Positions 18,642 to 18,670 of a stretch of 64,000 nt of DNA are shown in pieces. Made by a program: the position numbers and the translations under genes. The stretch spans positions 70,163 through 134,162 of the forward strand of contig JBAZKA010000002.1 of the NCBI GenBank assembly GCA_041651015.1, given 5' to 3'. The DNA is from Patescibacteria group bacterium (GTDB lineage: Bacteria; Patescibacteriota; Patescibacteriia; Magasanikbacterales; GWA2-37-8). Each line of letters begins with the position of its first letter. Within the stretch, counting starts at the first letter, position 1. The notes below the pieces were generated by a model. The model saw only the letters and a list, made by a program, of their open reading frames with translations. It did not search any database and was not told where the DNA came from.

Positions 18642-18670
18642 ACTATAGCACATTTTTGGGGTTTTGTCAA
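18642..18670 (-). promoter_or_regulatory. conserved strong promoter module, copy A
   Basis: Minus-strand TTGACAAAAC-N7-AAAATGTGCTATAGT. The same module recurs at 44259-44287 and 47958-47986. Confidence 0.55.

Follow-up and report, generated by a model that had tools for sequence, protein, structure and literature searches.

Three copies of a putative strong promoter module in a Magasanikbacteria genome precede a structured RNA and small-protein genes

The same promoter-like module is found at three sites on the minus strand of a 64,000-nt stretch of DNA from a Patescibacteria group bacterium (hereafter the window, which denotes the whole stretch that was analysed). Its anatomy and conservation suggest, with a probability that we place near three in four, that the module is a near-optimal housekeeping promoter of the sigma-70/SigA type that has been kept by selection for very highly expressed transcripts in Ca. 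Magasanikbacteria. As a mechanism, the promoter is unremarkable for bacteria. What is new here lies behind and beside these promoters, namely a structured RNA, a candidate operator, and a set of genes with high GC content at third codon positions (GC3).

Anatomy and distribution of the module

Direct reading and a pattern search both yield three exact copies of TTGACAAAAC-N4-AAAATGTGCTATAnT in the window, all on the minus strand, against a chance expectation of 0.00 copies in 100 dinucleotide shuffles. A search that allowed 1 to 3 mismatches added none. These results bear out the initial annotation in its claim of a near-identical module at three minus-strand loci. The variable gap had been described as N7, a pattern that matches nothing, and is in fact N4. 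Exact matches to TTGACAAAAC-N4-AAAATGTGCTATA span positions 18644–18670, 44261–44287, and 47961–47987, and the last two bases of the -10 element complete the 29-nt copies listed in Table 1. The coordinates first given for copies 1 and 2 stand, whereas copy 3 lies one base further right than the 47958–47986 originally assigned.

Each copy consists of a -35 element (TTGACA), a 17-bp spacer, a TRTG-type extended -10 (TGTGc in all copies), and a -10 hexamer of the form TATAnT. The hexamers match the consensus at 11 to 12 of 12 positions. Of the 23 fixed bases, 13 lie outside the hexamers, and the N4 is unlike between the window copies. The earlier description was correct in that the identity of the promoter copies reaches past the hexamers, with an extended TG among the shared bases. 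TRTG is a known Firmicutes-type extended -10 (PMC12641261, introduction).

Table 1. Coordinates of the modules and associated features in the window
Feature	Position	Strand	Remarks
Promoter module copy 1	18642-18670	-	TTGACA-AAACCCCAAAAATGTGC-TATAGT; predicted start near 18635/18636; exact orthologues in L183, L184, L100
Structured non-coding RNA, ~340 nt, from copy 1	18298-18635	-	Alignment of 9 genomes, covariation
Terminal hairpin and U-run of the RNA	about 18298-18345	-	Conserved; the RNA's own terminator
124-aa ORF	17991-18365	-	First ~22 codons overlap the 3' helices and terminator of the RNA
Degenerate palindrome TTGCCGAATGTTAGCCAA	18695-18712	.	24 nt upstream of copy-1 -35, after GCCATTTTTT unit; TTTTGGCTAA units in L183-L189
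Palindrome TTTGTATACAcaaGTGTATACAAA (TTTGTATACAnnnGTGTATACAAA)	18737-18760	.	Upstream of copy 1; equal relative position in L100, L183-L189
Degenerate palindrome TTGACTAAGATTAGCGGA	18767-18784	.	96 nt upstream of copy 1
DnaA-box-like pair TTATCCACA, TCATCCACA	18817-18837	+	Copy-1 intergenic region, ~12 kb from oriC; boxes also in L087, L189
Promoter module copy 2	44259-44287	-	TTGACA-AAACCTTCAAAATGTGC-TATACT; predicted start near 44252/44253
Copy-2 leader, structured, 240 nt	44013-44252	-	Fold z = -6.6 (predicted, single sequence)
78-aa secreted peptide gene	43776-44012	-	Signal peptide MKKFFAIIVTVSIFSGLFSSIAFA; GGAG ribosome-binding site; hypothetical WC457_01925
Palindrome TTGGCTAAGATTAGCTAA	44307-44324	.	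19 nt upstream of copy-2 -35, centre near -64
Palindrome TTGGCTAAGATTAGGGAA	44342-44359	.	54 nt upstream of copy 2, 24 nt upstream of divergent rpsL -35 (44384)
Promoter module copy 3	47959-47987	-	TTGACA-AAACGGCCAAAATGTGC-TATAAT, 12/12 hexamer match; predicted start near 47952/47953
88-aa (or 84-aa) acidic protein gene	47660-47926	-	26-nt leader behind copy 3
Bidirectional terminator hairpin	47623-47642	.	After acidic-protein gene, common to fusA

From this anatomy we infer transcription from the module, its strength, and its start sites. Region 4 of the sigma factor would contact TTGACA, the 17-bp spacer would set the geometry, and the extended -10 (TGTGc) and TATAnT would be recognised by sigma regions 3 and 2, respectively. 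Transcription would begin 6 to 7 nt past the -10 element, frequently at the G of a GTT. The A-rich ends of the spacer (AAAAC ... AAAA) and its C-n-Y-n centre would be features preferred in this lineage, which make the copies look identical. Copy 1 would thereby produce a structured, self-terminated RNA upstream of a dksA/traR-like gene, copy 2 a structured leader with a small secreted peptide, and copy 3 a small acidic protein.

Beyond the window, a scan that took one genome per species found the exact 23 bases at 102 genome loci, mainly in Ca. Magasanikbacteria and other Patescibacteria, although the apparent conservation among these loci is inflated because they were chosen by exact match. 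In 84 Patescibacteria copies, information content is approximately zero outside positions -1 to +36, the last base of the -10 element is T in 100% of cases even though it was left free in the search, a GTT motif lies 6 to 8 nt past the -10 element, and the 'free' N4 prefers C-n-Y-n. In three genomes with exact copies (L017, L056, and L091), the 5′ end of class A RNase P RNA, as placed by its Rfam model, lies 6 to 7 nt past the -10 element. Exact copies also occur in Clostridia upstream of tRNA genes and of the ldcC/SpF59 sRNA, and the 23 fixed bases recur in approximately six phage groups. Together, these observations indicate that the module is an attractor for strong SigA-type promoters.

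The orthologues of copy 1 were retrieved via the dksA-like protein and thus without use of the module in the search. The promoter at this site matches the module exactly in L183 and L184, with one mismatch in L185, and with four to five mismatches in L186 to L188, and it has a different spacer in L189. The -35 element (TTGACA in all three window copies and in all nine orthologues of copy 1), the spacing, and the -10 element are invariant in the nine genomes, whereas the spacer bases drift. The downstream RNA is conserved in all of them. Spacer identity is thus a preference rather than a requirement. A metagenome scan for relatives of ribosomal protein S12 gave one close contig, in which just 100 nt of upstream sequence was available, and the module was present in none of 80 loci.

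One could argue that the resemblance among the copies arose by chance, or that the module is a plain, genome-generic promoter of no special meaning. Indeed, the module is close to the generic consensus, as 74 further TTGACA-N17-TATAAT-like sites from the retrieved loci yield TTGACA-AAA-n5-AAAA-T-R-T-G-n-TATAAT, such that the module is essentially the lineage promoter consensus made perfect, and exact copies have an independent origin in Clostridia and in phages. Against this reading stand the chance expectation of zero copies, the presence of just 2 to 10 exact copies per metagenome-assembled genome (MAG; 10 in PFBV01, six in JBDRSF01, and five in LBSX01), and the divergence of further strong promoters in the window. 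These promoters, including those of translation genes, differ from the module at no fewer than five of the 23 fixed bases, and the spacers of the EF-Tu, S10-operon, tRNA-Ala, rpsL, and dksA promoters are unrelated to it. We consider this explanation very improbable, and the initial annotation was right to set the module apart from the promoter of most genes.

The class also stands apart more sharply than the tail of a simple consensus would. Two of the fixed bases are off consensus, with C after AAA at 19% and C before TATA at 28% of the 74 sites. If positions are assumed to be independent, approximately 4 in 100,000 (4e-5) consensus-type promoters would match all 13 bases outside the hexamers, whereas three of the nine TTGACA-N17 sites in the window do so. 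Together with the divergence of the other window promoters and the N4 preference, this difference argues for a distinct class, and the spacer may be read by something beyond generic RNA polymerase contacts.

A structured RNA downstream of copy 1

Copy 1 had been assigned to a gene for a 124-aa hypothetical protein. This assignment fails, as the ATG of that ORF lies inside an RNA helix, is ATA in the closest relatives (L183 and L184), and is absent in L185 to L189. Rather, copy 1 appears to drive an undescribed family of structured RNA with strong covariation. The RNAalifold consensus from an alignment (A4) of nine genomes comprises 73 base pairs, of which 36 have compensatory changes. Overall, 93.4% of the cells are paired, compared with 35 to 44% when the partners are slid, and none of 500 shuffles reaches the observed values. 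The folding z-score is -7.2. The RNA is a multi-helix structure with GNRA tetraloops, wherein the conserved blocks are CAUUCYGACUUC, CCGUAUAUCGG, GCGGUUGGRAUC, CCCCGMAAGGGG, and AAAACAACAUUGUWAUACGGGC. In the window, L100, and L183 to L189, the RNA region measures 306 to 338 nt and ends in a hairpin and U-run.

A search of Rfam 15 (4227 families) returned no relevant match to this RNA at E ≤10 for the window sequence or at E ≤1 for L100 and L087, and nhmmer searches with single RNA sequences matched only the queries themselves. A covariance model identifies exactly one copy per genome. A model of the 3′ 210 nt missed the RNA at the equivalent syntenic position in L087, and L087 is not counted as a member.

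The RNA was seen in Magasanikbacteria only, always between a region of palindromes and DnaA boxes and the dksA-like gene. The order common to the window, L100, and L183 to L189 is DnaA-box-like sites, a GTATACA palindrome, TTGGCTAA-type repeats, the promoter, the RNA, a separate promoter, and the dksA-like gene. Pfam matches put both the dksA/traR-like gene and lspA a short distance downstream of copy 1. Synteny across Magasanikbacteria (window positions 17028–23533, and L183 to L190) encompasses a large lamin-tail-domain (LTD) protein, a metallophosphoesterase, the new RNA, the dksA-like gene, lspA, and a Mg-chelatase-like ATPase.

The downstream segment of the 124-aa ORF is specific to the window and absent from the closest relatives, and in L184 the terminator is followed directly by the dksA promoter. 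The ORF has no Pfam match and no tblastn match in the retrieved loci. Should this segment be translated at all, initiation at the ATG at position 18230 is more probable (79 aa, MNNFEYKEP...).

DnaA may act as a transcription factor at the boxes upstream of copy 1. These boxes were also considered as a possible oriC, a reading that was rejected given that dnaA, dnaN, and six DnaA boxes lie at 5.0 to 7.9 kb at the GC-skew minimum. The probable oriC is the segment at 6452–6647, where the six boxes are flanked by dnaA (5030–6448) and dnaN (6736–7860) at the minimum of the cumulative GC skew. Elsewhere in the window, a group I intron (Rfam, 72.5 bits; 24387–24604, plus strand) lies approximately 180 nt past tRNA-Ala (24130–24203). 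The next ORF, of 226 aa (24715–25395), is unannotated, has no Pfam match, and abuts tRNA-Pro.

Genes behind copies 2 and 3

Copies 2 and 3 are separated by rpsL, rpsG, and fusA (Pfam assignments). Annotations for the exact proteins exist in a Patescibacteria MAG, on a contig of 241 kb. The leader behind copy 2 contains a terminator-like hairpin and U-run at about 44146–44181, approximately 95 nt from the start, that is possibly an attenuator or the end of a short RNA, and a long inverted repeat at 44063–44125. The leader belongs to no Rfam family, and no relatives of it were found. Gathering as well as permissive Rfam thresholds gave no known RNA for this leader or for that of copy 1. The secreted peptide gene that follows has a GC content of 0.64 and a GC3 of 0.90, whereas the 48 other genes of the window have GC3 values of 0.34 to 0.62. 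In composition the gene is an outlier that looks foreign. Two small homologues of the peptide share 55 to 56% identity with it. We considered whether this GC-rich ORF might instead be a structured RNA, and rejected the idea on the basis of the GC excess in third positions (0.90 versus 0.56 and 0.47), the signal peptide, and the homologues. Expression-linked codon bias was likewise rejected as the cause of the high GC3, as the ribosomal-protein and elongation-factor genes have GC3 values of 0.46 to 0.57.

High GC is a recurrent property of genes at such positions. Among first ORFs behind exact modules in Patescibacteria, 29 of 82 exceed their own locus by more than 8 GC points, and GC3 values of 0.75 to 0.88 are found in loci of 35 to 48% GC (L090, L014, L097, L069, L022, L024, L015, L007, and others). 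Horizontal acquisition and selection for mRNA stability are candidate explanations. In L191, a relative whose S12 protein is 93% identical, the entire copy-2 block, from the two palindromes through the module and leader to the peptide gene, is missing at the equivalent place, and homology begins at the rpsL promoter.

In the MAGs PFBV01 and MFRE01, a conserved leader hairpin of approximately 60 nt (GGCAAGTTGTGAATAAATGGAAAA...CATTATATGAACAACGCCGCCATTTCAAG) begins at the -10 element of exact modules (L032, L053, L054, L061, L086, and L097) and is followed by small GC-rich ORFs for secreted or membrane proteins. In L086 and L097 this leader is tandemly duplicated along with TATAAT.

The locus of copy 3 can also be compared with L191, where a module with one mismatch is convergent with fusA and carries the palindrome described below exactly 9 nt upstream. 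Outside rpsL–fusA, the sole DNA that can be aligned between the window and L191 is an island of 38 nt over the module (87% identity), which we read as a clear phylogenetic footprint of the module. In L191, the orthologous promoter precedes the gene for a 148-aa protein, which has 33% amino-acid identity (E = 2e-9) to the 88-aa protein of the window. A word-indexed search of 5.8 billion proteins revealed no relatives of the 88-aa protein, and the homology in L191 emerged through synteny alone. By this comparison, the acidic protein of copy 3 appears to be fast-evolving.

Some acidic proteins behind modules have a D/E-rich tail with a tryptophan (KDTDSWFEDKQ, DDELADKWFKN, and SDDVGSWIERPAA), as encoded at 6787–6945 in L094, at 3558–3731 in L191, and by the copy-3 gene of the window. 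The tail may be a shared C-terminal motif of module-driven acidic proteins, for which BLAST similarity is not significant. Copy 3 itself stands back-to-back with a plus-strand promoter (TTGACA at 47993–47998 ... TATGTT) for the gene at 48013. Divergent pairs of this type, wherein the -35 elements form an inverted repeat 5 to 20 nt apart, comprise TTGTCAAtcatcaTTGACA at copy 3 (47981–47998) and TTTCAAcgaagggtaagcccTTGACA at 11.3 kb (11285–11350), and similar arrangements occur in L041, L056, and L091.

The upstream palindrome, rival explanations, and known systems

Shared flanks had been reported for all three copies, which is true in part. The element gccatttttt is present at copies 1 and 2 (18687–18696 and 44334–44343). 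The second shared element, TTGGCTAAGATTAG, is one half of a separate 18-bp palindrome, TTGGCTAA-NN-TTAGCCAA. It occurs twice beside copy 2 (44307–44320 and 44342–44355) and only in degenerate form beside copy 1 (GACTAAGATTAGCG at 18769–18782 and TTGCCGAATGTTAGCCAA at 18695–18712), and the flank of copy 3 holds no intact element or palindrome. The palindrome nearest to rpsL, TTGGCTAAGATTAGGGAA, is absent from the rpsL upstream region of L191.

In 815 kb of sequence, 41 of 48 matches to the palindrome lie within 230 nt of a module, whereas 508 kb of unrelated bacterial contigs gave only three weak matches. The palindrome occurs no more than 120 nt upstream of 23 of 106 modules, with a gap of 8 to 9 nt in 10 of these, and its commonest position is exactly 9 nt from the -35 element. 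The TTAGCCAA half-site is found in 18 upstream regions compared with 1.1 expected. No palindrome was present beside the phage copies of the module. Upstream regions are also enriched for the DnaA-box-like TTATCCAC (seven versus 1.1 expected). The linkage suggests that the palindrome is most likely the operator of a lineage-specific dimeric DNA-binding protein that modulates this class of promoters. The palindrome is not obligatory, given that copy 3 has it in degenerate form at best and that its distance from copies 1 and 2 varies. Literature searches on the palindrome and on promoter motifs of the Candidate Phyla Radiation (CPR) yielded nothing specific.

In the MAG JBDRSF01 (L001, L042, and L080), a terminator follows exact modules at a distance of just 40 to 70 nt, and its stem, CCGCTTAnnTAAGCGG, is similar to the TTGGCTAA palindrome. 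Such units may encode very short RNAs.

The palindrome bears on the possibility of a dedicated regulon, in which the identical spacer AAAC-N4-AAAATG and/or the palindrome would be the operator of a single regulator and would mark co-regulated genes. The discreteness of the class in the window, the non-consensus bases held in common, the C-n-Y-n preference of the N4, the strong and specific linkage of the palindrome with its preferred 9-nt gap, and the TTATCCAC enrichment are all consistent with such a regulon. However, the RNA upstream of dksA is conserved even where four to five positions of the spacer (L186 to L188) or the entire spacer (L189) have changed, the Clostridia and phage contigs carry the identical 23 bases without the palindrome, copy 3 lacks an intact palindrome, and the distance to the module varies from 8 to 103 nt. 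On balance, we regard a dedicated regulon as possible though doubtful. The co-regulated mini-regulon originally proposed for the three loci is made plausible by the linked palindrome, whereas copy 3 speaks against it. Broader in scope would be a regulon common to the Magasanikbacteria lineage, defined by the module plus TTGGCTAA-NN-TTAGCCAA and placed under a global regulator. Its members would include the ~340-nt RNA and small secreted or membrane proteins whose genes are foreign in composition (GC3 of 0.75 to 0.9), and it would form an 'expression platform' for acquired or fast-evolving surface or effector genes of these reduced, episymbiont-like bacteria. We hold this proposal to be unlikely.

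The initial annotation had also raised the idea of a mobile or duplicated promoter cassette, that is, one that spreads within genomes, possibly along with foreign genes. The lack of the entire copy-2 block in L191, the GC-rich first ORFs, and the tandem duplication of the ~60-nt leader with its -10 element could be understood in this way. The limits of the similarity argue otherwise, as the 84 copies have nothing in common past the base before the -35 element or approximately 8 nt after the -10 element, the flanks of the window copies cluster neither together nor with other loci (the palindrome excepted), and the N4 differs between copies. Moreover, no terminal repeats were seen, no transposase or integrase was present among the flanking genes scanned, and copies 1 and 3 are orthologously placed in relatives. 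A cassette of this kind is thus quite improbable. The zero information content outside the module, the 38-nt island in L191, and the invariant -35 element, spacing, and -10 element in nine genomes point to selection rather than copying, which favours the housekeeping-promoter reading.

A housekeeping promoter of this form has recognizable counterparts. Pveg of B. subtilis (TTGACAAAAATGGGCTCGTGTTGTACAAT) is a SigA promoter of the Gram-positive type. Like Pveg and other SigA promoters with a '-16 region' TRTG, the module combines TTGACA, a 17-bp spacer, TRTG-n-TATAAT, and an A-run after the -35 element, and would likewise serve very highly expressed transcripts. The module differs in that its 13 spacer bases are identical across unlinked copies and species, in its occurrence in Patescibacteria, and in the palindrome upstream of many copies. 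The rrnB P1 promoter of E. coli is a stable-RNA promoter with an UP element and Fis sites upstream, and the suboptimal 16-bp spacer and GC-rich discriminator of rrn P1 promoters lead to stringent control. Similarly, the module would serve stable RNAs (RNase P RNA in relatives and the structured RNA here), has putative protein sites upstream of its -35 element, and in the case of copy 1 lies near a dksA-like gene. Unlike rrn P1, however, it has an optimal 17-bp spacer and an AT-rich start region, and the palindrome resembles neither Fis sites nor UP elements.

Class I activator sites of the CRP/FNR type are palindromic operators centred upstream of the -35 element. The 18-bp inverted repeat is comparable in having a preferred position, with its centre near -53/-54 at the 9-nt gap and near -64 at copy 2, whereas its half-site TTGGCTAA fits no operator that we identified and its distances vary widely. 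The copy-1 RNA, in turn, resembles large structured bacterial RNAs known from comparative genomics, such as raiA/ModT (PMC11706538), OLE, ROOL, and GOLLD, in its multi-helix structure, strong covariation, GNRA tetraloops, strong promoter, and own terminator, and differs from them in its lack of an Rfam 15 match and its confinement so far to Magasanikbacteria.

There is almost no experimental knowledge of transcription signals and their regulation in the CPR. The module provides a defined, conserved, and probably maximal-strength promoter, which could aid the annotation of highly expressed small RNAs and small proteins in these genomes and serve as a genetic part. In addition, the candidate operator motif gives the search for a global regulator a testable form. 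The analysis also adds a structured RNA family that is new and covaries strongly, and it corrects the annotation of one ORF.
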